A stretch of 64,000 nt of DNA. It comes from a virus. The stretch is taken from IMG/VR virus record IMGVR_UViG_3300045007_000250, positions 1 through 64,000 of that record; one strand, 5' to 3'. The notes beneath the pieces are model-generated. The model was not told the origin of the DNA, ran no database searches, and saw nothing but the letters and a program-made list of their open reading frames with translations. Both the position numbers and the translations under genes were made by a program. Each line of letters starts with the position of its first letter. Positions within the stretch are counted from its first letter, which is position 1. Of this stretch, positions 1 through 59,225 are shown piece after piece.

Positions 1-300
1 AAAGGACGAAGCGCGGGTGGTGTGGGTGGAGCAGTAAATACTAAACCACTGGTGTTGGTGCGTTACGGGTATATGCCAATAACACTCTCAAACGATGGGC
101 GTACTTGGTACACAACCATCCAAGCTGTTTCTGGTCAGGAGTACGGCGTTGGACGAACAACGGCTCAAAAAGAAGCAGACAAGACGAATCGCATTCGTCG
201 TGAAAAGGGTGATGATGTGGCGAGGCGGTCTCACGCTGCGTGGTTGTCGCGGTTCGACAAGGCTGTTCGGGACGAACTAAAGCGTAGTGGCGGTCGGTAA
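1..300 (+). CDS. MGKGR-leader family basic protein (5' truncated by window edge)
   Basis: Frame 1 is open from base 1 and reads KGRSAGGVGGAVNTK..., the same leader as the downstream paralogs; true start lies just before the window. Confidence 0.75.
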   Translation, partial: KGRSAGGVGGAVNTKPLVLVRYGYMPITLSNDGRTWYTTIQAVSGQEYGVGRTTAQKEADKTNRIRREKGDDVARRSHAAWLSRFDKAVRDELKRSGGR

Positions 301-824
301 TGGGCAAAGGACGAAGCACAGGTGGAGCAGGCGGCGGAGCGCCGGGAGTACGTCCCGCCGGTGGTGGTTTTTCCTTGGCCGCGGCGCGTGACGTTGACCG
401 TGTGGAAAAGATTTTCAACGGCAGTATCGGTCCCATGCACGGAGTTTATTCCCGACGCTACTACAAGGGGGCGGCTGCGGCTGAGATGGTCATGGCCGGA
501 GCGCGGGGCACCGGAAGCCCGACGTACAACGCCTTCCGATTCAGGACGATGGCTGCGGCGATGCGTGATCCTGCCTTTGCCGGTCTCTCCTTCAAATTCG
601 GGCGTGAGTATTCCCCGGTGCTCTACGTGAAGGGGCCGGAGGCACAGCTTCGGACCTTCATGACACGGCACGGGCGCACGGCGGATGAGAAGTGGATTGT
701 GCCGAAGGATGCGCGGGAGATCGTGCGGGGTCGTCGGGGCAATGCTTTGCTTGACGCCACCGGAACCGCCGTTCGCACGAAGGTTAGTCCGTTCCGCGGA
801 CAGCTTCGGCTTTGGTGGGATTGA
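300..824 (+). CDS. MGKGR-leader family Arg/Gly-rich protein
   Basis: Starts MGKGRSTGGAGGG; ATG overlaps the upstream TAA; ends RGQLRLWWD. Confidence 0.8.
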   Translation: MGKGRSTGGAGGGAPGVRPAGGGFSLAAARDVDRVEKIFNGSIGPMHGVYSRRYYKGAAAAEMVMAGARGTGSPTYNAFRFRTMAAAMRDPAFAGLSFKFGREYSPVLYVKGPEAQLRTFMTRHGRTADEKWIVPKDAREIVRGRRGNALLDATGTAVRTKVSPFRGQLRLWWD

Positions 825-851
825 GTGCGGGCACCTGCACGGGAGTAGCGC

Positions 852-1436
852 ATGGGCAAAGGACGGTCAGGTGGTGGGATGGGCGGCGGGGCCGCTGCGA
901 ACATGAATCGCGCTGTGCCTTCTCTGCCGAGCCAGTTGATCGGCGGGGTTTCCGAGAAGCGCACAAAGGCCGCTGCGGAAAAGTTGGCGGAGCATCTTGC
1001 TCTGACCATCCCCGGACGTGATCTGCGGGCCTTCACGGAGCGGGAGCGGGCGGCAATGAACACGTTGCCGCGGCGTTCTCCTGCACGGTTGGCGTCTGAG
1101 CCTTCCTTGAAGGTGTATGAGCGGGCGTTGGCTTTACAGCGCGGGGCCGGGATCGTTCCTATCACCTTCAAGGTGCTGCGCACCATGCCGGGACCGGGGC
1201 GATTGGGACCGGCGGAACAGGCGCGTGTGGCCCGCGGTTTGGCGCTGCGGCACACCGGGGAAGACCTGCGGGCGCTGGCGACCCATGCGCGTAAAGATGC
1301 CACGGATATTCGTGCGGCCATGCGTGGGGCTTCAAATCCCTTGCTTGCACGCCGCATCAAGGTACTCGAATACCGGGCAAGGGTGCTGGATCAAGCTGTC
1401 AGATACGCTGATGAGTTCGCAATTACACGCCCGTGA
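852..1436 (+). CDS. MGKGR-leader family Arg/Ala-rich protein
   Basis: Starts MGKGRSGGGMGGG; GGGAG RBS at 841-845. Confidence 0.8.
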   Translation: MGKGRSGGGMGGGAAANMNRAVPSLPSQLIGGVSEKRTKAAAEKLAEHLALTIPGRDLRAFTERERAAMNTLPRRSPARLASEPSLKVYERALALQRGAGIVPITFKVLRTMPGPGRLGPAEQARVARGLALRHTGEDLRALATHARKDATDIRAAMRGASNPLLARRIKVLEYRARVLDQAVRYADEFAITRP

Positions 1437-1449
1437 TGGGGGTTGACGG

Positions 1450-1542
1450 ATGGGTGACAAGGGCCGGGCAGGTGGCGGTTTGCGGCGATTCCGAACTCTA
1501 CCAAGGGGTCTTTGCGTCTTTGGTGGGATTGAGCGCGGATAG
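1450..1542 (+). pseudogene. Internally deleted relic of an MGKGR-leader gene
   Basis: ATG 1450 reads MGDKGRAGGG; another frame ends TKGSLRLWWD* at 1532; 1518-1538 matches 810-830 at 20/21 nt. Confidence 0.6.
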
Positions 1543-1560
1543 CCGTGTAGGAGGTTTGTG

Positions 1561-2187
1561 ATGGGAAAAGGACGTGCTGGCGGTGGAATGGGCGGTGCCG
1601 GTGGGATGACGCAGAGTGAGCGTGACCGCGCCGAGATCGCACGCGAAGTCCGCCGGAACAGGGCGATTGACCTTCGTTCCATGCTTTCCGCCAATCGTCC
1701 TCTCGGTGCCACCCTTGAGGGACAGGCTTCGGAGATGGCTCGGTCCACTCGAAGCACTGAAAGCGTTGACCGGGCGCTTCGGGTGAGCCGTGATCTGCTT
1801 TTGCGGACACAGAGGGATGTGGCTTCCGGTATGACCATCCCCGCCGGTGACATGCTTCAACTGAGGATTCAGGTGGCCCGTGACAACCGTGCTCTGTACC
1901 TGCGTGGCCGTGACGCCGTGGATGCGGTGAATCGCACTGGCTGGCATACGGCGACGGACGGACAGATTGGTGCGATTGGGCACTACTTCGCCGGGTCGCG
2001 GGGCATCACTCAGATGCGGGGACAGATTGCCACACTTACTCGACGGGCTGCGGAAGCGCGGACTTCCGGTGAGTCGGCCACAGCTACCCAAGGCAGACGC
2101 AATGCCATTGCCGCCTTGCAGAGAGGCTACAACCTGCGGATGGAAGCACGACAGTTCGGACGTGACTTTACCCGTGCGGGTGGGTGA
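1561..2187 (+). CDS. MGKGR-leader family Arg-rich helical protein
   Basis: Starts MGKGRAGGGMGGAGG; AGGAGG RBS at 1549-1554. Confidence 0.8.
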   Translation: MGKGRAGGGMGGAGGMTQSERDRAEIAREVRRNRAIDLRSMLSANRPLGATLEGQASEMARSTRSTESVDRALRVSRDLLLRTQRDVASGMTIPAGDMLQLRIQVARDNRALYLRGRDAVDAVNRTGWHTATDGQIGAIGHYFAGSRGITQMRGQIATLTRRAAEARTSGESATATQGRRNAIAALQRGYNLRMEARQFGRDFTRAGG

Positions 2188-3289
2188 TGAAAGTACCTGC
2201 GTTGACCACCCCCGCACTCAACCTGATTCGACGGCTCCCTCTGCCTTACGCCATGCTTCCCAAGGTGTTGAAGGCGGAAAGGGCTGTTCCTACGCAAGCC
2301 GGGGGTGGGGTGCCTACCTCTGCCCAGGACACTCCCGTTCCCACGGAAAAGCATGAGAGTGGGGATACCCTCAACCCCTAGATTGCTTCTTTCCTGACGC
2401 AAAGACATGGAGCTACCCATGCGCACCACGAGGACTGTGCCTCGTGCTCTGGTGCAAGCACTTGCATGGTGTCACCCTGCGCTACTTATGCCTTTAGATT
2501 GTGCAGCGTGACGCATGAAGGGGGTGGGGTGTGTTGCATTCCCTTGTCCATAGCGAGTTCAACGCAGGGGCAGGGCGCAAGTCAAGCAGCCTTGCAAGGA
2601 AAGCGGGGGTGGGGGGCGGGCAGTAAGCAGGCGGTGTCCCGTGTGCGGGGACTAGGACCACCTGATAGGTAGGGCTTGCGGGGGTGTTCACGTAGCCAAG
2701 ACCCTACACACACGGGGACTATGCCCACCCACGCCCTTGTTTCACGCGGAGCCGTAGGCCATGTCCTGCCCTCGTCCTTGTACGGGTCCACGGATCAAAT
2801 TCACGCCTTTTTCGTTGTGTTTGGGTCGGGGGAGTGTCCGGGGGTGGCCCTCGATTTGAAAAGTCCCTTTTTCTAATCGTTTTTCAACCTATGTGCCGGA
2901 GGGGAATGGGGCATAGGACGTTGGTAATTCTCAAGAAAATCAGGCGTTTCGGCGGGAGTGTTCGCCACGGATGCCCCGTGTGTTCATAGGACAAGAAAAC
3001 TGAGCGCGTAGGACCAAAAAACACTCCGAGAGGGGCTTTGAGGGGGCCGGAAGCCCTTGAATAAGGAAAAAATCGTACCCGTGGGGGTGATCGCGGCCAG
3101 GAAAACGCCCTCAAACCTCCCATCCAACCCTCTCAAACCCTCTCAAACCCCTCCGACGAGTCGCGCCTTTGTCCAGAGGACAAGATAAAGGATTTCGACC
3201 GGGTGGCCCCCAAAGTTTCTAACACGCCTTTACTCTTGCATTATGGCCGGGACAGGTTTATGATAGGGATGACATGAAGGAGAAATTCC

Positions 3290-4204
3290 ATGATTGCTGG
3301 TGAAGAACCGGGGAAGCGGGACGGACAGCAGCCCTCTCAGTTTGGCGAGGGTTGGTCTCAGTGTTTTCTCTGGCATAGGCGTTGGCCGGTGGCCTCCGGC
3401 GTGTGGCTCCTTCTCCTTCTCGGCATCGTCACGAACGCCTTGTGGTGGTGGAATTACGAACAGGAAACGACGGAACACGGGCAGCATCATGCGGAATTGT
3501 CGTCGCTTGAAGCTGACACCACAAAATACAAACGGGAGATTGAGGTTCTTGAAGGTGCCGCCGATGTATTGCGGCAGGAGATTGAAAATGCTCCCTCCAA
3601 AACAACGGTACGAGTTGTACGGATCAGTGACGAACGCGGCCCCACGGCTTTACCGCCGGGTACGCCGCCCGATCACGAAAATACACCGACACCGGAGCCG
3701 CTGCCACTCGACTGCATAACCTGTTTCCGGCAGGTGGAGATACCCTATCAGTTCACGAATCAATACGTGGTCCTCACCGACCTTTTGCGTTGGAACGAGC
3801 GGGCGCAAACCTTGGAATCCGACCCCGATCACCGCGCCATTCGTTTCACCCCGGAGTTCAATCGCGCCTTGGTGGATGCCGGTATTGCCGGATTCGTCAC
3901 TTATGACAACCGGGTGGCGCGCGCCCGTTTCTTCTTTGGGGTGGACGGTGGCGTGGCCCTGGCCGACACCCCGGTTTTCGGCGTGGGTGCCGGTCTTGAG
4001 TTCCTGAATTTCGAGAAATGGATTCGTGCGCCCATCGGGCTGCAAGCGGGCTTCTTCGGCACACCGATGGACTGGTGGCAAAGCCACGCTTCCCTTGGTC
4101 TTAGTTGGCGTTTCGTGCGCAACGTGAGCCTGAATCTTTCCTACGGACGGGCGTGGCGAACGAATCAAGTGCTGCTCGGCTTGAGCGTGTACCCTTTCGA
4201 CTAG
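3290..4204 (+). CDS. Membrane protein: N-terminal TM helix, coiled coil, C-terminal amphipathic beta strands (spanin-like candidate)
   Basis: Hydrophobic VASGVWLLLLLGIVTNALWWW; heptad region; Pro-rich linker; alternating beta strands ending LGLSVYPFD; AAGGAG RBS. Confidence 0.6.
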   Translation: MIAGEEPGKRDGQQPSQFGEGWSQCFLWHRRWPVASGVWLLLLLGIVTNALWWWNYEQETTEHGQHHAELSSLEADTTKYKREIEVLEGAADVLRQEIENAPSKTTVRVVRISDERGPTALPPGTPPDHENTPTPEPLPLDCITCFRQVEIPYQFTNQYVVLTDLLRWNERAQTLESDPDHRAIRFTPEFNRALVDAGIAGFVTYDNRVARARFFFGVDGGVALADTPVFGVGAGLEFLNFEKWIRAPIGLQAGFFGTPMDWWQSHASLGLSWRFVRNVSLNLSYGRAWRTNQVLLGLSVYPFD

Positions 4205-13909: not shown

Positions 13910-15256
13910 ATGACAATGCCAGAAGCGAGAAAAAGACCGAGATGGATGGCCGGAAGGGGCCGCAAGGATATGGCTTCCACAATCCCCCATTCCGTCAGGG
14001 AGCGGGTGACTTCCGAAGAAGCGGGAACCGCGGCGAAGCGTGTCCCCCGTGTCCCGCCGATTGCTTCTGCCAGTACGGACCCGGAGCTTGCGAACCGGTT
14101 TGCGGATTTCCTTATTACTGATATTCAGGATCATCCCGATGAGTACCCCAAATCCGTTGCGGATTTGGGACGGGCCGCGAAGGTCTCCGCCACTTACGTT
14201 CGTTTTCAGGTTGCCAAGCCGGACCTGATTGCTCGTGTACGTGCTGAGACCGGAATGACAATGGAAAGTGATGGTGCGACCGTTACCCTTGATGGTACTC
14301 CGGTAGCACCCCGCACCCCCAGCGGCGAGGGGGTAACGGTGAAAAAGGATGGAGCACGCCCCGATACGTGGCGGGTGCGTCCTATGTCCTCGTCAACGGA
14401 CTCCACGGTGGACCACGACCCCAATTTTTTCCACTATCCGCCGGGTTTCAAGGAGCGTGTTCGGGCCATTCTTGCCGCCGATCTAAACTTGTGGTTTTAC
14501 GGAGAAACCGGCACCGGCAAGTCAGAAGGCTTTGAGCGTATCTGCGAAGAGGATTCGCGCAAGGTAGTCAAGGCGTCCTGCAACGGGGAATCGTCGGTGG
14601 ACGACGTGCTTGGACATTTTATCCTGCGTGGTACGGAAACCGTGTGGGTGGACGGCGCTCTTCCTCTAGCCATGAAGACCGGCGCGGTGCTGATCTGCGA
14701 AGAAGTGGACGCGGCTCCGGCGGAGATCAACCTTGCTCTGCAACGGGCTTTGGAAGTGCGTGTTGGACGTAAACGGCATTTCCTGAATCCGCGCAACGGG
14801 GAGGAAGTTGAAGCGCAGCCGGGCTTCCTGATCGCCGCGACGGCCAACACCAGTGGCGGCGGGGACTACTCCGGTATCTATGCCGGAACGCAGACGCAGA
14901 ATGCGGCCTTCCGAGATCGTTTCGTGTTTATTCAGGTGACGTACCCGGATGAGCCTTCTGAGATCAAGATTCTACAACATCGGGTGAAGGATTTTCCCTT
15001 TACGATTGCACAAAAAGCAGTGCGTCTCGCCAACTACGCCCGTAACGCAATGAAAAACGGGCAAACCTTCACTCCGGTTTCAACACGCTCCCTACTTGGG
15101 TTTGCGCAGTTGTATATGGCTTTCACCACCGGTGGTATTGGGGAGCGTACTTCCTTGCGTGACGCCTTGAATGCCACGATCTTTCACAAGGCGGCTTCCC
15201 CGTCCGATTCCAAGGCCCTCTCCGAGATGGCGCAAAAACTCTTTGGCACCTTCTGA
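13910..15256 (+). CDS. MoxR/CobS/CbbQ-family AAA+ ATPase (start may be 13970)
   Basis: GETGTGKS Walker A, ICEEVD Walker B, ATAN sensor 1, AFRDRF Arg finger, STRSL. Confidence 0.9.
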   Translation: MTMPEARKRPRWMAGRGRKDMASTIPHSVRERVTSEEAGTAAKRVPRVPPIASASTDPELANRFADFLITDIQDHPDEYPKSVADLGRAAKVSATYVRFQVAKPDLIARVRAETGMTMESDGATVTLDGTPVAPRTPSGEGVTVKKDGARPDTWRVRPMSSSTDSTVDHDPNFFHYPPGFKERVRAILAADLNLWFYGETGTGKSEGFERICEEDSRKVVKASCNGESSVDDVLGHFILRGTETVWVDGALPLAMKTGAVLICEEVDAAPAEINLALQRALEVRVGRKRHFLNPRNGEEVEAQPGFLIAATANTSGGGDYSGIYAGTQTQNAAFRDRFVFIQVTYPDEPSEIKILQHRVKDFPFTIAQKAVRLANYARNAMKNGQTFTPVSTRSLLGFAQLYMAFTTGGIGERTSLRDALNATIFHKAASPSDSKALSEMAQKLFGTF

Positions 15257-15262
15257 AAATAC

Positions 15263-15291
15263 TTGACAAGTCTTTTGCGCCGTGTTAGGTT
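15263..15291 (+). promoter_or_regulatory. sigma70 promoter
   Basis: TTGACA-17-TAGGTT. Confidence 0.7.
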
Positions 15292-15326
15292 ATACTTGAC
15301 GTGGCGCTTTGGTTCAGGGAGTGCCC

Positions 15327-17279
15327 ATGACGACAAGGGCAATACAAGTCCTAGAAACGGCGAGCGAAAAAGTTGCACGGATGATGACGGCAACGGGCGT
15401 CACCGTGCAATTTCATCCGAAGTGCACGGTGCCTTGTGCAGACCCCGAAACGCTGTCCATTGTGCTCCCACCGCTGCCTGAAAAGCTGACCGAGGAAGAG
15501 GAAATGAAACTCCGTGGCGCTCTTGACCACGAAGTTGCGCACATCCTCTTTAGCAAGAACAAGGATGGAAAGCCGGAAAACTTGGGCAAGCTGGGGGGAA
15601 CACTAGCCGGGTACTTGTTCAATATCGTGGAAGACGGGCGCGTGAATCGCCTCATTGCCGAAAAATTCATGGGGGCTGGTGAGAATATCTTGGTGGAAGA
15701 ACGGATGATTTTCAGGCATCATGCCGCAGAAGTGGCAACCAAGCGACCTACTTTGTCGGAAAAAGACAGGGTGAACTTGGAGCGATGGATTGCAGTGATG
15801 CGGGCGGTTGAAAAGTACGTTTTTCGGAGCGGGGAAGATGTCACGACTCCGCTGGGGCCGTCTCGCTTTGATGCGACCCTTCCTGCTTCCCTGAAAGCTC
15901 GTCTTGAAGCCGTGGCGACCTTAGAAGACGCCAAGGAGTGTGCGGACCCTATCAAGGTGTGGCTTTTCGGCAATCCTGATGAAGCCAAAAAAACCAAAAG
16001 CGACGCCCGCAAAGACGCGGGGAAGACCAAATCCGACAAACGCGGCTCCGGTTCAGGCAAACCAGACCCTTCCAAGGGGTTTGAGGAGCCGGAGAAGGAT
16101 GCAAAGGAGGAAGCCGGAGACAACAAAGCCGTGGAGGAAGAGAAGAAAGAAGCAGGGGGTAAGAACAAAGAGGAAAAGAAAGAAAAACCGGAAGCAAAGA
16201 GCGATTTAGAAGACGGTGAAGGCTTCGAGGAAAAAGATACCGATAGGGATGGTGAGTTATTTGGGGAAGATGACGAAGAAAACGTCGGCGCTCTTGTCGC
16301 AGTTATGATGGAAGGGGAAGCGGATAAGGCGGAGTTCCTAGAGATTTCCGTTGATGCCTTCCGGGGGGAGACCCGGTACTACGTGGACACGTCAACGGAT
16401 GCGGAAGTCCATGTGAGGGACGTTGCCAAGTATAGTTGGCGGGACGGAATGATTGACCCGGAGGCCCTCATTGAAGGGAAGCGTCTTTTCTCTGGCTTGG
16501 TGGACAAGGTGGCGGCTCTCCGTGGGCGACTCATTATGGACCTTCAAAGCATCGGAAGAAAATGGGAGCGCCATCTTGAGACCGGTATCTTGGATACCCG
16601 CGCTCTTCATCGTCCATTCGTCGGTGATCCGCGGATGTTCGCCAACCGGGTCAAAAGGGAAAAAATCCATACGGCGGTTACGCTGCTTCAAGACTGCTCA
16701 AGTTCCATGCACGGAAAAAAGTTCAACACGTCCATTCAGCTTGCCGCCCTCTTCTGCGATGCGTTAGAGATGGCAAACGTACCGTGTGAAGTGCTTGGTT
16801 TTACTACGCATTATAATGCACGTCCCACGTTTGGCATTCGCCATGAATCCTTGCTTCATGTCGTTTTCAAGAGTTTCCAAGAGCGGGCTTGGTCGCACCG
16901 GAATGACTGGTATGCAATGAATGACCTGCTAGGTCAGAATGTGGACGGGGAAGGTGTGCTTTGGGCGGCAAAGCGGCTTGTGGTGCGGCCTGAGCGCCGG
17001 AAGGTGCTTTTTGTACTCTCCGATGGTATCCCGATGGCGATGGTTGATGGGCGTGGGACTGGTGGTGTTTACATTCTTCACTCCCACCTGAGAGAATCAG
17101 TCCGGGCGGCGGAGTTGGCCGGGATCGAGGTGATCGGTGTGGGGATCAGGACGGATGCACCCCGGTATTTCTACCGGAAGCATGTTGTTTACGATAGCCT
17201 TGGCGATTTGATGACGGGCTTCTACTCCGGGGTAGCTTCCCTACTTAGAGGGGGTCCGGGCTTGCCGATGGCCGTGTGA
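15327..17279 (+). CDS. CobT-like protein: HExxH domain, charged linker, VWA domain
   Basis: LDHEVAH, NIVEDGRV, MIDAS DCSSSM, VLSDG; adjacent to the AAA+ ATPase. Confidence 0.88.
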   Translation: MTTRAIQVLETASEKVARMMTATGVTVQFHPKCTVPCADPETLSIVLPPLPEKLTEEEEMKLRGALDHEVAHILFSKNKDGKPENLGKLGGTLAGYLFNIVEDGRVNRLIAEKFMGAGENILVEERMIFRHHAAEVATKRPTLSEKDRVNLERWIAVMRAVEKYVFRSGEDVTTPLGPSRFDATLPASLKARLEAVATLEDAKECADPIKVWLFGNPDEAKKTKSDARKDAGKTKSDKRGSGSGKPDPSKGFEEPEKDAKEEAGDNKAVEEEKKEAGGKNKEEKKEKPEAKSDLEDGEGFEEKDTDRDGELFGEDDEENVGALVAVMMEGEADKAEFLEISVDAFRGETRYYVDTSTDAEVHVRDVAKYSWRDGMIDPEALIEGKRLFSGLVDKVAALRGRLIMDLQSIGRKWERHLETGILDTRALHRPFVGDPRMFANRVKREKIHTAVTLLQDCSSSMHGKKFNTSIQLAALFCDALEMANVPCEVLGFTTHYNARPTFGIRHESLLHVVFKSFQERAWSHRNDWYAMNDLLGQNVDGEGVLWAAKRLVVRPERRKVLFVLSDGIPMAMVDGRGTGGVYILHSHLRESVRAAELAGIEVIGVGIRTDAPRYFYRKHVVYDSLGDLMTGFYSGVASLLRGGPGLPMAV

Positions 17280-33170: not shown

Positions 33171-34244
33171 ATGGCCGGAAAAGGACGTGCAAGCGGAGCA
33201 GCGGGTGGTGGCGGTGGTCCGACCCGCGAGCAGATTGAAGAAAAAGAGCGGGCGGCAGCGCAGATCGCCGAAGAGCAGCGTGCTCGTGAAGAGTTGATGC
33301 GTCGGCAAGAGGCCGAAGCCAGAGCGCGGGCGCAGGCTGCGGCGCAAGCGGCGCAAGCGGATCGGGCTTTCCAGCAAGCCTACACTCGTTTCGTTTCGCA
33401 TGAAACCATTACGGGCGCGGCGCGTGATCGTGGTGTACCCCCCGAATTGCGAAAACAGTTCGTGGGGAACGTCCGTGGGATGCGCGATCAGGTGATGAAG
33501 GAAAAACCCGCGAGCATCATTGCAAAATTCCGGGCCGATGGGCATACGGTGGACGCTCATGGTGTGTCGGATCGGCGGTTGCGGCAGGCGCTAACCGAAG
33601 GCGGGATCAAGCCCATTCGTGGTGTCACCGCTGCGGAACAGTTGGCGGCTATCTCCGGTATTGCGGGGGTTGGTTTGCGTGGGTGGAATTTTACCATTTC
33701 GGGAGCGGGGGACTCTCTTCTTGTGAGCGGCAAGGGTCCGAGTGGCGGGAGCGTGAGCTATGCCATCTCGAAGGTGTGGAACGCGGAGGCGGGACGTGCC
33801 ACTCCCATGCTCGGTTATGGCGGCTTTTTTCCCGGACAGCAGCGCGGCGCGGGTGTGAGTTATTCCGCTATGCCGCGTATGTTTATCATGGCGCGGGCTT
33901 CTGGCATTCACGGGTTGGGCTTTCTCGCTGGTACTGGTGGTAACATGACCGGGGCGGTTGCTTGGCCTTTGATGGGCGCTCGCTTTTTGAATCCTACAGA
34001 GGCGCGTGGCGCAATGGAATACATGGCGCGGGCCACGGGGAATCGCCAGTGGTTGCGGTTGCGCGATCCGCGTGACATGATTGGAAAGGATCGGCTGGTG
34101 CGTGAGTGGAAACAGCACGCTCGCAATCTTCCGTCAATGCCGGAGATGGGGCTGAGTTTGCTTGGTCCGCAAGCGCGTGTGGACGGGAAGTATTTGAACA
34201 AGTCAACTCTCGAATCGGCGTATCGCATGATTCGTAGGATGTAG
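33171..34244 (+). CDS. MAGKGR-leader protein with coiled coil and C-terminal GNAT-like domain
   Basis: MAGKGRASGAAGGGGG; GQQRGAGV resembles GNAT motif A, then ARASGIHGLGFLA...GAVAWPLMG. Confidence 0.7.
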   Translation: MAGKGRASGAAGGGGGPTREQIEEKERAAAQIAEEQRAREELMRRQEAEARARAQAAAQAAQADRAFQQAYTRFVSHETITGAARDRGVPPELRKQFVGNVRGMRDQVMKEKPASIIAKFRADGHTVDAHGVSDRRLRQALTEGGIKPIRGVTAAEQLAAISGIAGVGLRGWNFTISGAGDSLLVSGKGPSGGSVSYAISKVWNAEAGRATPMLGYGGFFPGQQRGAGVSYSAMPRMFIMARASGIHGLGFLAGTGGNMTGAVAWPLMGARFLNPTEARGAMEYMARATGNRQWLRLRDPRDMIGKDRLVREWKQHARNLPSMPEMGLSLLGPQARVDGKYLNKSTLESAYRMIRRM

Positions 34245-53834: not shown

Positions 53835-54001
53835 AAGAAGGCGATTGCAAAGTTGTCGAAATTGCCGCACAGTATGTGTGGTAAGGGATTCGTCCGGGCT
53901 TTGTGACTTGTGCCGCGGAGTGCCCGTTGCTTCCACGGTTCGCAAGGTGGGTTTCGACAATGAAAGTGTGGTGACACGCACCTTGTTTGGTGGGAGAGAA
54001 G

Positions 54002-56827
54002 ATGCCCGAAGAAAAGTCAAACAAAGATTCCGCTAGGCCGGGGTATTTTGAGGCTCTTGTTGCCGATTCCGAGCTAACCATTGTCAAGGTTTTCGGTGGC
54101 GAGAGTGACGTGGGTTTACCCGGAGCCGCGAAGTCTCAACAGCTTCCGCCTAACTACTTTGAGCAGGACATTCGTGCGGGGAAGGTTATTGCTCCGCTCT
54201 ATGATCCGCTGGTGTGGGCTTTCCTTCTTGAGCAGAGTACCCGCCTCGCCACGCTGGTTCGCAGCATGGCGAACAACACCGTGGGGTTGGGATGGGAGCT
54301 TGTGCCGGTCAAGGAAGAGGAGACGTGGCTTGAACAGAACAAGGATGCAATCGCGGCGGAGAAAGAGAACGTCACCGGTCTCTTTGAGGCTCCCAATCCT
54401 GAGTTGCCTTTCTGTGAAACTCTAAAGTGCGTCAAGATTGATGAGGAAGCGACCGGCGGCGGTTGGCTTGAAGTGTTGCCCACCGTGAGCGATCCTCACG
54501 CCATTGCCGGTTTTGACCACATCCCGTCCTATACGATGCGCGTTGCCAAAGAAGGCGACAAATACGTGCAAATGCGTCCTTCCGACACGTCCAAGCGCGT
54601 GTATTTCAAGCCGTATGGGGAACGGCGTGACTTGAATTGCGAAACCGGCGAGTGGGGGACGGACAAGATTCCGGTGCCGAAGGACAAGCTGGCGCATGAG
54701 GTTCTTTACTGGAAGCTCTACTCTCCGCGGTCTTCTTTTTACGGTGTCCCGCGTGCTGTTGCCACCGCACCGGCGATTGCCGGAACACGCTTGGCGCACC
54801 GGCGGAACGTCAATTTTTTCGAGAATGATGCATGTCAGCCAAAAAGTGCAATGATTCTCACACCTTACGGGTGGTCCACGATGGGGGAGATGTGCGTTGG
54901 CGCTCTTGTCATCGGTTCTGATGGCAAGGCTCATGCGGTTACGGGGGTCTTCCCACAGGCCGGTGAGCGGGATGTGTACCGGGTGCATTTCTTCGGCGGT
55001 GCTTCAACGGAATGCTCTTTGGATCACGTTTGGACCGTGACCAACGCTTATGATCGGAAGCGGGGTGTGATGCGAAAGATGACCCTAGAGGATATTCTCA
55101 AAGACGGTTTATTCTACGAGTGCGGTACGGCGAAGTGGGCCGTGCCGATGCTGGACCCCGTGGAGTATGCGCCGGTGGAATCTCTCTCCGTGGACCCCTA
55201 TTTGCTTGGGTATCTTTTGGGTAATGGGTGCTTGCGTGGCGGTGGGGTATCCATTTCTTGCAATGCTACCGACACGGATTTTGTGGAGAGCATGTTTAAG
55301 AGTACCACGGGACTTCCCGTTTCTCGGTCGGATATGAAAGGTTGGTCCACGCTGCGATCTTGTGGTGGTCGTAATAATTCCATCCGTGAGGCGTTGAAAG
55401 TCTTGGGTGTTTACGGTCTTTTGGGAAAGGAGAAATTCATTCCTGAGAGCTACTTGCGGGCGTCTGTGGCGGATCGTACTGCTCTTCTTCAAGGTTTGAT
55501 TGATTCGGATGGGCATGTGGGGGATACTTTTGTCCGCTTTACGACGGCCTCGCGCCGCTTGGCGGAGGGCGTGCAGGATTTGGTGGGTTCCTTGGGGGGT
55601 GCTACGACGTTTGCTCCTTGTAAGGGGCGCTCCACCATGAATGTCACCATTCGGCAGTTGCCGGAAGAGATTGTGCCGGTGCGTTTGCCTCGAAAGGCTG
55701 CGGCCTATTCAATGTTGTCGGTGACACGGGTTCGCACCATGATAGGTGCAGAGTTTGTCCGAAAAGAAGCGGTACAGTGTATTCGCGTGGACACGCCGGA
55801 TTCGCTTTACGTCACGGATAATTTCATTCTTACGCACAATACGCCCCGGTTGGCCGTGGTCGTGAACGGCGGGGAGCTTTCGTCCGAGAGCCTTGAGATG
55901 ATTCGGGACTTTGCGGAAGTTCGTGGGAAGGGTGTGGCGAATGCCGGGCGTGTCATGGTGTTGCAGGCGCGTGCCGCGGATAACATCACGCAGAACACGG
56001 ATCAGTTGAAGATTCAGTTGGTGCCTTTGACAGTTGGTGTGCAGGATGACGCCTCGTTTGCCAAATACATCGCCATGAACAATGAAGAGATCAGGGAAGC
56101 CTTCGGTATCGGGCAGATTTTCATTGGTACGTCGGACAACGTGAACCGGGCCGTGGCTCTGGCAATGAAGCAGTTGACCGTGGAGCAGGTCTTTGAGCCG
56201 GAAGCCGTGCGGTACGAGTACAAATTCAACCTCATCTTGCGTGATCGTTTCGGTGTGAAGCACATCCGGTTGAAGTTCAAGCGGCCTCGTACCACGGATT
56301 TGCAGGCGGAGGCACAGGCATTCTCCATGTTGGCCGCGGCTGGCGGAGTTACGCCCAACGACATTCGTGACTTCCTTGGAAAGCCGCGGTTTGAGGGCGC
56401 GTGGGCCAACACTCCCATCGCCATTCTTCGTTCCGGCATGATGGAGAAACGTGGTGAAGCGGATGCGACTCTTTGGACGCATTACGGGGACAAGCTGCCG
56501 TCTATGCGTCTTACGGATGAACAGGCTGATTTGGCCGAGGCTCAAGCGGGGACGGCGAAGCAGCAAGGAGAGACGCAAAAGATAATGGTACCGATGCAGC
56601 AAGAGGGTCTGAAAGCGCAGTTGGAAGTGACCAAAGCGCAGGCTGCGAAGCTCTTGCAGGAAGCCAGAACAGGCGGGCAGGCTCCGACTCCGACGCAGAT
56701 TCAGGCTGCGGCGAAGGAGTTTTGGGATGATGACTACCTCGCGCTCATGGAGCAGGTGCAATCGCTTGCAGACAAGCTCGCTGGACTCGGCATGGCGGTG
56801 GAAGTTCGTCCGGTGGTGGAGATATGA
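54002..56827 (+). CDS. Portal protein interrupted by an intein
   Basis: DEEATGGGWLEV, YGVP, NFFEND, TPNDIR; upstream of protease and capsid. Confidence 0.88.
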   Translation: MPEEKSNKDSARPGYFEALVADSELTIVKVFGGESDVGLPGAAKSQQLPPNYFEQDIRAGKVIAPLYDPLVWAFLLEQSTRLATLVRSMANNTVGLGWELVPVKEEETWLEQNKDAIAAEKENVTGLFEAPNPELPFCETLKCVKIDEEATGGGWLEVLPTVSDPHAIAGFDHIPSYTMRVAKEGDKYVQMRPSDTSKRVYFKPYGERRDLNCETGEWGTDKIPVPKDKLAHEVLYWKLYSPRSSFYGVPRAVATAPAIAGTRLAHRRNVNFFENDACQPKSAMILTPYGWSTMGEMCVGALVIGSDGKAHAVTGVFPQAGERDVYRVHFFGGASTECSLDHVWTVTNAYDRKRGVMRKMTLEDILKDGLFYECGTAKWAVPMLDPVEYAPVESLSVDPYLLGYLLGNGCLRGGGVSISCNATDTDFVESMFKSTTGLPVSRSDMKGWSTLRSCGGRNNSIREALKVLGVYGLLGKEKFIPESYLRASVADRTALLQGLIDSDGHVGDTFVRFTTASRRLAEGVQDLVGSLGGATTFAPCKGRSTMNVTIRQLPEEIVPVRLPRKAAAYSMLSVTRVRTMIGAEFVRKEAVQCIRVDTPDSLYVTDNFILTHNTPRLAVVVNGGELSSESLEMIRDFAEVRGKGVANAGRVMVLQARAADNITQNTDQLKIQLVPLTVGVQDDASFAKYIAMNNEEIREAFGIGQIFIGTSDNVNRAVALAMKQLTVEQVFEPEAVRYEYKFNLILRDRFGVKHIRLKFKRPRTTDLQAEAQAFSMLAAAGGVTPNDIRDFLGKPRFEGAWANTPIAILRSGMMEKRGEADATLWTHYGDKLPSMRLTDEQADLAEAQAGTAKQQGETQKIMVPMQQEGLKAQLEVTKAQAAKLLQEARTGGQAPTPTQIQAAAKEFWDDDYLALMEQVQSLADKLAGLGMAVEVRPVVEI
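54833..55840 (+). mobile_element. Intein with LAGLIDADG homing endonuclease (336 aa)
   Basis: ENDA|CQPKS...FILTHN|TPR; block B CSLDHVW; YLLGYLLGNG and LLQGLIDSDG. Confidence 0.92.
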
Positions 56828-57152: not shown

Positions 57153-59225
57153 ATGAAAGATCGGTTTGAGTTCGATCTGACTGTGTGGAAGGCTGACCAA
57201 CGCGACGGTAAGCCTTGCTTGCTCATCTACGCCACTGACACTGCGGACGACCGGCATGGCGACAACTGCACTCTCGCGTGTCTTGAAGGCTTGCAGAAGC
57301 AGATTCGGGATGGCGGGATAGAAATTCTCAATTCCCATCACGACGCGGTGGGTCTTGGACAAGCGGTTGATGCCCATATTGTTGACGCGGAACAGTTTGA
57401 TTTCCGCTTGAAGGGCGAGCGTGCCCTTTTGGTGGATACGATTTTGGACCCCCACGATCCGCGGGCGATCAAGCTCTTCGAGAAGGCACAGCAGAGCACC
57501 CCTGAGAATCCTCTGATTCGTTTTTCCATCGGTGGCGAATTGAACAAGGCCAATCCACGGCGCGTTCTTTGGAAGACTGGCGGTGGCAGGCAACTCAACG
57601 ACATGGTTCTTGACCACATCACCGCTTGCCGTCCCCTCAAAGCCTCTAACACACGCACACACATTGCCGAAGCCGTTTTCAAGACGTTGGAATACCCGGA
57701 AAGCGATCCGGGGTCCGTCGTTTTGGCGGACAATGTGGCTGCGGACAAGGACAAAACCATGCCCCCTGACTCCTTCGTTGCGGCACTCCGAAAGTTGGCT
57801 TTCGGTGACGGCGTGGAAAAGGCTCTCTCCACCGCGTACTTTGAGGGCGAGAGCGGCCCCGCGGGGAAGGGGGAGAATGAGCATGTTCACCAGTTCACCG
57901 CCCGTTTGAATGCGGACGGTGGTACGGTGATCGGCATGACGCAGAATTGGTCTGCCGGGGATCGTCATTCGCACATGATTGATCTCATGGGTGACGACGA
58001 TCCCGTGACTTCCGGCCCATCTCGCGGTTTTCAGCATTTTCACGCCTTGGAAATGCCGACTGTTCGCCAATTGACCCAAGCGGAGTATGAAAAGACCGTG
58101 GCGGCCCTGGTTGCGGAAGACCCCAATGCCACCGTCTTGCAGGTTGACCCTGCGGACTTGGAGAAGTTGGCCCCGGCGGTGGAGCCTGCTCCTGTGGACG
58201 TGGCGGCGAAGAAGGCCGAGGACGACGAAGAGCCGGATGAGGATGAGCCGGAAACCAAGGCAGCGATGGGCTTTTTCAAGACCATGATCCAAAAGCTCCG
58301 GCACAAGGAACCACCCACTCCGCTTGTCCTGTTGAAGCAGACGGCGAGCTATCTCACGCCCGAAGCCGTTGCGAAAGACGGTTTCGACGCGGTGGTGGGC
58401 GGAACCATCGAAGTTCTCCGAAAGGTTCTGGCGGCTGCTCCGGCGGATCGTGAGAGCCTTACCGTGCGTGCGGCCAAGACCATTTCTGTGTTGGAAGCCG
58501 CCGCTACCGGTACCGAGCTTCCGAAAGAAGCCGTTGGAGCTTTGGTGGATGCTTTCGCCAAGCATACCAATTCCGCACCGGACGGCCCGACTGCTCCCCC
58601 GGCGGAGGCCAGTGGCGGCGGTAAGTCGGAAGTATTGGAAGGTGAAGCCGGGGAGAAGGCCAAAGAAGAAATGCCCGCGGGTGGTTTCGCGGGTGCGGAG
58701 AATGCAACGAAACCCGCTCCGGTTGGGGGCGGCGAAGAGGATGAGGGAGTGCCCGACATGAAGAGGGAAGAACTATTGGCGGCTCTGAAAGAGTTTGCGG
58801 CGGAGCAGACCGTGGCAATCGTGAAAGGCGTCACGGACGCCTTCCGCAAAGACGGGTTGCTCCCTGCGAAAGACAATCAGACGGAAACCCCGGCTTCGGG
58901 GGCAACCTCGAAAGAGGCCCCTCCGGCGACCGAGACACCGGTTTCCAAAGAGGCGGCTCCGGCGGCTCCGGCACAAGCCGAGACTCTTACGGCCCCGGCG
59001 GACGCGCAGAAGGACGGCGGCGAAGTCGAAGCGTTGAGGGCGACATTGGACACGGTTCTCAAGACCGTGGACGGTCTCAATGCGACGGTACAGCGGTTGT
59101 CCAACGCTCCGGCGGCTCCGCGCAACATCGCGGGGCAGGATGGCCCGGCCACGCCCCCGCAGGCGAAGAGGGGTGTCTTTTCCGGCGCTCTTTTCCGCGG
59201 GGACAAGCCCTCGGCCAAGGCGTAA
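57153..59225 (+). CDS. Prohead protease / scaffold fusion
   Basis: YATDTADDRHGD, NSHH, FSIGG; long acidic Ala/Pro-rich C terminus; precedes capsid. Confidence 0.78.
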   Translation: MKDRFEFDLTVWKADQRDGKPCLLIYATDTADDRHGDNCTLACLEGLQKQIRDGGIEILNSHHDAVGLGQAVDAHIVDAEQFDFRLKGERALLVDTILDPHDPRAIKLFEKAQQSTPENPLIRFSIGGELNKANPRRVLWKTGGGRQLNDMVLDHITACRPLKASNTRTHIAEAVFKTLEYPESDPGSVVLADNVAADKDKTMPPDSFVAALRKLAFGDGVEKALSTAYFEGESGPAGKGENEHVHQFTARLNADGGTVIGMTQNWSAGDRHSHMIDLMGDDDPVTSGPSRGFQHFHALEMPTVRQLTQAEYEKTVAALVAEDPNATVLQVDPADLEKLAPAVEPAPVDVAAKKAEDDEEPDEDEPETKAAMGFFKTMIQKLRHKEPPTPLVLLKQTASYLTPEAVAKDGFDAVVGGTIEVLRKVLAAAPADRESLTVRAAKTISVLEAAATGTELPKEAVGALVDAFAKHTNSAPDGPTAPPAEASGGGKSEVLEGEAGEKAKEEMPAGGFAGAENATKPAPVGGGEEDEGVPDMKREELLAALKEFAAEQTVAIVKGVTDAFRKDGLLPAKDNQTETPASGATSKEAPPATETPVSKEAAPAAPAQAETLTAPADAQKDGGEVEALRATLDTVLKTVDGLNATVQRLSNAPAAPRNIAGQDGPATPPQAKRGVFSGALFRGDKPSAKA

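Follow-up and report, generated by a model that had tools for sequence, protein, structure and literature searches.

A lineage-specific tandem family of basic phage proteins with a constant Gly-rich N-terminal leader, possibly a recognition tag

Introduction

In phage T4 a short N-terminal capsid-targeting signal (CTS) is found on the diverse internal proteins IPI-III and on Alt, and the ip loci are polymorphic (PMC3012670), while in phage P1 an N-terminal DarB stretch of fewer than 30 residues suffices to direct a protein into the capsid (PMC9024508). GNAT, metallopeptidase and ParB modules are furthermore typical of head-delivered effectors, and the GNATs of phage polyvalent proteins are RimI-like (PMC5512222). 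Here we describe an array of genes for small Arg-rich proteins at the left end of a 64,000-nucleotide (nt) stretch of phage DNA (the window; bases 1-64000 of the 86,920-bp IMG/VR record IMGVR_UViG_3300045007_000250, rated 82% complete). The array proteins begin with a common leader of 12-15 residues, (M)(A)GKGR[S/A]xGGxGG, and we conclude that these small basic proteins make up a tandem family that is specific to one phage lineage and turns over fast, with only the leader kept constant. The leader itself may, tentatively, be compared to the signals of T4 and P1.

Results

A leader shared by tandem genes

The leader is found on four consecutive genes (m1-m4), on a relic situated between the last two of these and on a distant sixth member (m6). 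The genes concerned, and the one that closes the array, are:

1-300, + strand: m1, begins KGRSAGGVGG and is cut by the contig end inside the leader; about 101 residues if the start is MG
300-824, + strand: m2, 174 residues, starts MGKGRSTGGAGGG and ends RGQLRLWWD
852-1436, + strand: m3, 194 residues, starts MGKGRSGGGMGGG, with the ribosome-binding site (RBS) GGGAG upstream
1450-1542, + strand: relic, a collapsed cassette of 30 codons, starts MGDKGRAGGG
1561-2187, + strand: m4, 208 residues, starts MGKGRAGGGMGG (MGKGRAGGGMGGAGGM), with the strong RBS TAGGAGG
2187-2381, + strand: leaderless small open reading frame (ORF) of about 64 residues, whose ATG overlaps the m4 stop codon (TGATG); the last gene of the operon
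33171-34244, + strand: m6, 357 residues, leader MAGKGRASGAAGGGG; heads a cluster ending in terminase

The four array starts read exactly as reported by an earlier reading made from the sequence only, and the relic at 1450 and the sixth member at 33171 share the leader, as that reading had also claimed. A GTG at 1558 was rejected as the start of m4, the true start being the ATG at 1561, which is preceded by TAGGAGG. A six-frame scan of the 86,920-bp record together with all ORF N-termini placed the leader start on no other real gene. The header tags GSGNxGH and NPxHDxxGRF do not occur in the genome either. The m1 stop codon TAA overlaps the ATG of m2 (TAATG), and stop and start codons of the array either overlap or lie 13-27 nt apart. 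As judged from this layout m1-m4 and the leaderless ORF form one co-directional, translationally coupled operon, and since no promoter-like site was found within it, the operon promoter probably lies to the left of the window.

The reading frames m1-m4 are real + strand genes, as is evident from codon statistics and from a strain variant. A codon log-odds model trained on the confident genes of the genome yields +0.23 to +0.25 bits per codon for m2-m4, 0.33 for m6 and +0.29 for the leaderless ORF; m1 is weakly positive (+0.05) and is so in its own frame only, and values are negative in every frame other than the named + strand frames. The minus strand has longer ORFs over the array, as is expected at 62% GC. 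In one lake-water run a strain variant carries 21 single-nucleotide polymorphisms (SNPs), which cluster in 554-680 within m2, with none elsewhere in 1-2720. Two thirds of them (14/21) fall on m2 third codon positions and only 5 residues change in the m2 frame. Of four other frames tested, three undergo 14-17 residue changes and the fourth gains two stop codons, and the same SNPs put stops into the minus-strand ORF 623-1360. The SNP patch looks recombined, and the contigs of another run break there. The exact sequence of m2 is present on a 104,294-bp JGI contig too.

Conservation of the leader

The orthologue of m4 (P0002) is identical in 12 of 12 leader residues versus about 60% identity overall, and the orthologue of m6 (P0006) retains the first 11 leader residues at 78% identity overall. 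Between the paralogues the codons of the leader vary, since Arg is encoded by CGA, CGA, CGG, CGT and CGT, Ser by AGC, AGC and TCA, and the third positions of the Gly codons vary freely. Because the leader codons differ synonymously, the conserved level appears to be the peptide, or at least the GGN periodicity, and codon comparison thus argues that selection acts on the leader as a peptide, or at least on this periodicity.

Lys-Gly is encoded by AAA GGA in 5/5 intact leaders and by AAG GGC in the relic, AAA and GGA being minor codons (29% and 13% genome-wide), and the octamer AAAGGACG has five of its seven window occurrences within leaders. In codons 2-12 of the genome, however, the use of A-ending codons is approximately doubled (AAA 44%, GGA 26%), and since the genome favours such codons there, AAA GGA would reflect a general initiation-proximal preference and not a special site. 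Predicted folds leave the start regions of m2-m4 mostly unpaired, the leader starts have no RNA fold in common (z -0.7 to +1.1), and the array contains no Rfam family and no tRNA. Judged by eye the GGN run may form a two-tetrad G-quadruplex, which would be inseparable from the coding of Gly.

Bodies without detectable similarity

The array bodies are Arg-rich (12-16% R) with a net charge of +10 to +21, and had been claimed by the sequence-only reading to lack obvious similarity once past the leader. Three methods agree on this. BLASTP finds no similarity between the bodies of m3 and m4 (best E 0.37), Smith-Waterman comparison of all ten body pairs against 300 composition-matched shuffles gives z -0.9 to +1.9, and hhalign aligns only 14 leader residues between m4 and m3, and between m4 and m6 the leader and some 15 residues of the charged helix that follows, but nothing further. 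The alignments of the array proteins were of single-sequence depth. No member has a sequence match in Pfam, PHROGs, NCBIfam or the PDB; a weak match of m3 to phrog_6176 has an E of 0.04.

The AlphaFold2 (AF2) model of m4 is an all-helical bundle of seven helices (pLDDT, the predicted local distance difference test score, 80), in which residues 1-14 score below 50 and are predicted to be disordered. Fold searches with this model returned generic helical bundles only (best Foldseek E 0.04-0.1; VIA Z <= 7.3), and the structural neighbours of m2 in the Atlas include none that is informative. In m6 the leader is followed by a long charged helix (residues 19-74 approximately) and an alpha/beta C-terminal domain with a QQRGAGVS motif. 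Its AF2 model, in which a disordered leader likewise precedes a long helix and an alpha/beta domain, is poor (pLDDT 55) and unusable for fold search. The nearest Atlas models to the C-terminal domain belong to viral 'GNAT family' clusters (template modelling score, TM, 0.65; a lead only), one of which is partly fused to Phage_Mu_F (again a lead only), and classical GNATs are found at TM 0.42-0.48 in the Atlas. The GNAT assignment has no sequence match in Pfam or the PDB, and from the models the domain may be GNAT-like. Directly downstream of m6 follow genes for a DUF4417-like protein, a putative HExxH protein, ParB_N, TerS and TerL.

Duplication, decay and distribution

Two junctions within the array are homologous to each other:

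807-865, + strand: junction copy A, consisting of the m2 end, the intergenic spacer and the m3 start; homologous to 1515-1575
1515-1575, + strand: junction copy B, consisting of the relic end, the spacer and the m4 start; homologous to 807-865

The relic junction homology (repeat D4) amounts to 92% over 24 nt. The leader of the relic runs out of frame into a 3' end like that of m2, the other frame of which reads KGSLRLWWD and a stop, and the match to RGQLRLWWD and a stop in m2 is carried through synonymous differences. Because this other frame matches the end of m2, the relic is what remains, after collapse, of a diverged paralogue of m2. Junction homology and relic together indicate that the array grew by duplication of a unit of at least two genes, followed by divergence and decay. 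Turnover of the locus is furthermore seen in the relic cassette itself and in the orthologues, of which m4 and m6 have one each and m3 none detectable; indeed m3 has no homologue but itself in 5.8 billion proteins, in a search with sensitivity limited by the word prefilter.

The array has relatives in one phage only, a related one represented by a 104,759-bp contig, where m4 and m6 each have an orthologue. Apart from the m4 orthologue, an m4 profile searched with HMMER against 1.8 billion representatives found just a piece of m4 itself and a spurious repeat protein, and searches for related loci with m2, m3, m6, PolA and an m6 alignment gave no match. Exact leader DNA patterns revealed no phage array among 5 IMG/VR and 25 JGI matches (241 million metagenome records; the IMG/VR and JGI counts exclude near-identical records), the matches being internal matches, short ORFs, a YbaB-like protein and ABC exporters. 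The variant MG[R/S]G[R/S] gave 24 IMG/VR matches, among which phrog_6176, a single hypothetical gene of mycobacteriophages, is the only family. The phrog_6176 proteins (Lumos, Snenia and Whirlwind; L036:6869-7324 (+)) start MGRGRGGGGRGGG and derive from a right-arm gene. The leader pattern, which the sequence-only reading had proposed to trace through phage proteomes, is thus without a comparable array in IMG/VR or JGI metagenomes, and by these searches the leader family is confined to one lineage.

The phage and other features of the window

The phage has not been cultivated, and lake-water metagenomes, in which the same DNA is found, are its only known source; among the sequencing runs carrying the window DNA no RNA run is listed. 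Its genes include those for PolA, a DnaB-like helicase, a UvsX-like recombinase, terminase, an intein-containing portal and an HK97-fold capsid protein. None of the GenBank phages is close to it (the top PolA match has 33% identity) and none has a match to m4. The + strand holds most genes from approximately 8.7 kb onwards, and GC skew is positive throughout. To the left of window position 1 a lake-metagenome contig continues for 2,054 nt. The IMG/VR record opens precisely with the K codon in the leader of m1 (window 1-8), although other assemblies reach at least 2,054 nt beyond it, and a leader-sequence repeat upstream may be the cause of this break.

Just 3' of the array operon, about 900 nt (2381-3290) are without a convincing ORF and without an Rfam match, but have a TGCAAGCACTTGCA palindrome close to 2453 and, at about 3128-3155, CCCTCTCAAACC repeated in tandem. 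A pair of genes for a MoxR/CobS-like AAA+ ATPase and a CobT/VWA-like protein (13910-17279, +) is located upstream of the replication genes. The portal gene (53987-56827, +) encodes Phage_portal in residues 618-798, a LAGLIDADG/Hom_end homing-endonuclease insert at residues ~490-545 and, at residues ~280-540, PHROG matches to terminase- and primase-type families; these PHROG matches suggest an intein. Between portal and capsid protein, 57153-59225 (+) encodes 690 residues, of which the N-terminal ~180 resemble by eye an S78-type prohead protease and lead into a long, acidic, scaffold-like tail rich in Ala, Pro and Glu; this protein has no match in Pfam, PHROG or NCBIfam.

Discussion

We tentatively favor the notion that the leader is a portable recognition tag for capsid loading, by analogy with the capsid-targeting signals of T4 and P1, while placing our confidence in it at well short of even. 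Since the leader is a disordered, position-fixed and selected peptide on freely diverging bodies, it may be a portable handle read by one common partner. The likeliest destination would then be the assembling procapsid, as for the T4 CTS and the N-terminal signal of P1 DarB, and the basic array proteins and the GNAT-like m6 would travel into the host together with the DNA. Following removal of Met the tag would start with Gly-Lys-Gly-Arg, or with Ala-Gly-Lys-Gly-Arg in m6. In favor of such a tag is the fact that the leader stands at the very N-terminus in each of the five intact members and in the relic, and that it precedes bodies predicted to differ in fold, a helical bundle in m4 versus a coiled coil and an alpha/beta domain in m6. 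The context of the m6 cluster, with the GNAT-like domain, ParB_N, TerS and TerL, lends weak circumstantial support. The earlier view of the locus as a constant tag on variable cargo therefore stands as far as a short, disordered and selected module on unalignable bodies is concerned, whereas the cargo part is weakened by signs of duplication, which allow the bodies to be diverged paralogues.

A number of observations nonetheless speak against a capsid-loading tag. The duplication signature in the sequence is compatible with plain paralogy, and m3/m4 and m2/relic may well be paralogues diverged past recognition and not unrelated cargo. The array is furthermore located at the far left of a mostly rightward genome, upstream of methylase and replication genes, and such a far-left, pre-replication position is the usual place of early genes; the portal and capsid genes are some 52-57 kb away. 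Neither the amphipathic nor the hydrophobic character of the T4 CTS and of encapsulin cargo peptides is seen in the leader, and the family (two phages, and no array in IMG/VR or JGI) is too tiny to establish portability onto known domains. In addition, Gly-rich basic N-termini occur on unrelated proteins, namely YbaB-like proteins, ABC exporters and phrog_6176. The likeness to histone tails noted by the sequence-only reading is only compositional.

The same properties could also be those of an intrinsic nucleic-acid-binding tail, in which case the members would be diverged paralogues that bind nucleic acid (host nucleoid, phage DNA or RNA) and the leader a working arm, like the tails of histones or YbaB/EbfC, that carries no address. 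This would agree with the Arg-rich composition and net charge of +10 to +21 of every member, with the basic and predicted disordered nature of the leader, with the nearly identical start of a metagenomic YbaB/EbfC-like nucleoid protein, MGKGRGMGGFGGMGGM, and with the duplication signatures, which favour paralogy. Generic electrostatic arms however seldom preserve one exact, position-fixed sequence on proteins that otherwise cannot be aligned, and neither a DNA-binding fold from the m4 model searches nor a Pfam match to YbaB or histone-like families was found, making this explanation somewhat unlikely in our opinion. It can likewise be argued that what is kept is an expression cassette, in which RBS, ATG, A-rich AAAGGACG and GGN repeats ensure efficient or co-regulated initiation and spread by duplication, gene conversion or recombination, the peptide being without a role. 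The AAA GGA minor codons in 5/5 intact copies (AAG GGC in the relic), the concentration of 5/7 window octamers in leaders, the roughly twofold enrichment of A-ending codons in genome codons 2-12, the mostly unpaired start regions in the predicted folds of m2-m4 and the inclusion of a non-coding spacer in the duplicated junction all fit this notion. It seems quite unlikely all the same, since the remaining leader codons have diverged synonymously with the residues unchanged (Ser is AGC twice and TCA once), since the distant m6 keeps the peptide despite an inserted Ala and a different upstream region, and since no shared RNA structure (z -0.7 to +1.1) and no Rfam family is found.

The leader could moreover be a modification or processing motif, that is, a substrate of an enzyme encoded by or beside m6, subject either to N-alpha or Lys acetylation by the GNAT-like domain or to cleavage by the putative HExxH protein. 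Indeed m6 has both the leader and the possible GNAT domain (QQRGAGVS; Atlas neighbours), and removal of Met would expose Gly or Ala, N-termini of the kind used by RimI/J-type GNATs. The RimI-like nature of polyvalent-protein GNATs points in the same direction (PMC5512222), but the GNAT domain of m6 has no Pfam or PDB sequence match and a poor AF2 model, and we consider a motif of this kind improbable. A combined proposal, in which the leader is both a capsid-loading tag and a modification site, and m6 acetylates the N-terminus or Lys3 of protamine-like array proteins and thereby switches their DNA binding at packaging and after ejection in a phage 'histone-tail' system, must be regarded as highly speculative and very improbable.

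If the leader is indeed an address tag, it would be a minimal, 12-residue, Gly-rich signal unlike those of T4 and P1, and the orphan basic proteins would belong together as a single functional arsenal of a new freshwater phage lineage with 105-kb genomes. It could then show how a phage loads or co-regulates fast-evolving effectors and might find further use in protein delivery. Should it prove to be only an expression cassette or a DNA-binding arm, the locus would still provide a clean example of birth and death in which the first dozen codons alone are protected.

Comparison with known systems

The Gly-rich basic starts of YbaB/EbfC (MGKGRGMGGFGGMGGM) and phrog_6176 (MGRGRGGGGRGGG) are near-identical to the leader, but these are single genes with conserved bodies of their own, as opposed to an array. 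To our knowledge neither tail has a targeting role. The YbaB/EbfC tweezer fold (PF02575) has no Pfam match at E <= 1, and m4 is modelled as an all-helical bundle. Encapsulin cargo-loading peptides, which have hydrophobic anchors, are of the GSLxIGSLKG type and bind an HK97-fold shell, differ from the leader, which has no Leu or Ile anchors. As with polyvalent proteins and MuF-anchored effectors (PMC5512222), the m6 cluster brings together a stand-alone possible GNAT, a putative HExxH protein and ParB/Srx beside terminase, but m1-m4 and m6 are separate genes of 100-357 residues without MuF, portal or LPD domains and without any Pfam or PHROG domain. P1 DarB is similarly associated with ParB-like and metallopeptidase head proteins, as found around m6 (where the metallopeptidase is putative); the P1 signal is however carried by a single giant protein and not by an array of small proteins, and has no sequence similarity to the leader.

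The T4 CTS is an amphipathic peptide of the MKTYQEFIAE type and is removed by the gp21 protease. It is unrelated in sequence to the leader of the window and, going by its published description (PMC3012670), is set apart from it, the leader being Gly-rich, basic and predicted to be disordered. The window phage differs furthermore in that no T4-type protease is evident, that no cleavage motif can be defined and that the genes are located far from the head genes. The leader nonetheless resembles the T4 CTS in being a short conserved N-terminal peptide on small proteins that are diverse, often basic and the products of variable loci (PMC3012670), and the unalignable cargo, the relic cassette and the patchy orthologues are, as for the T4 internal proteins, those of a polymorphic locus.

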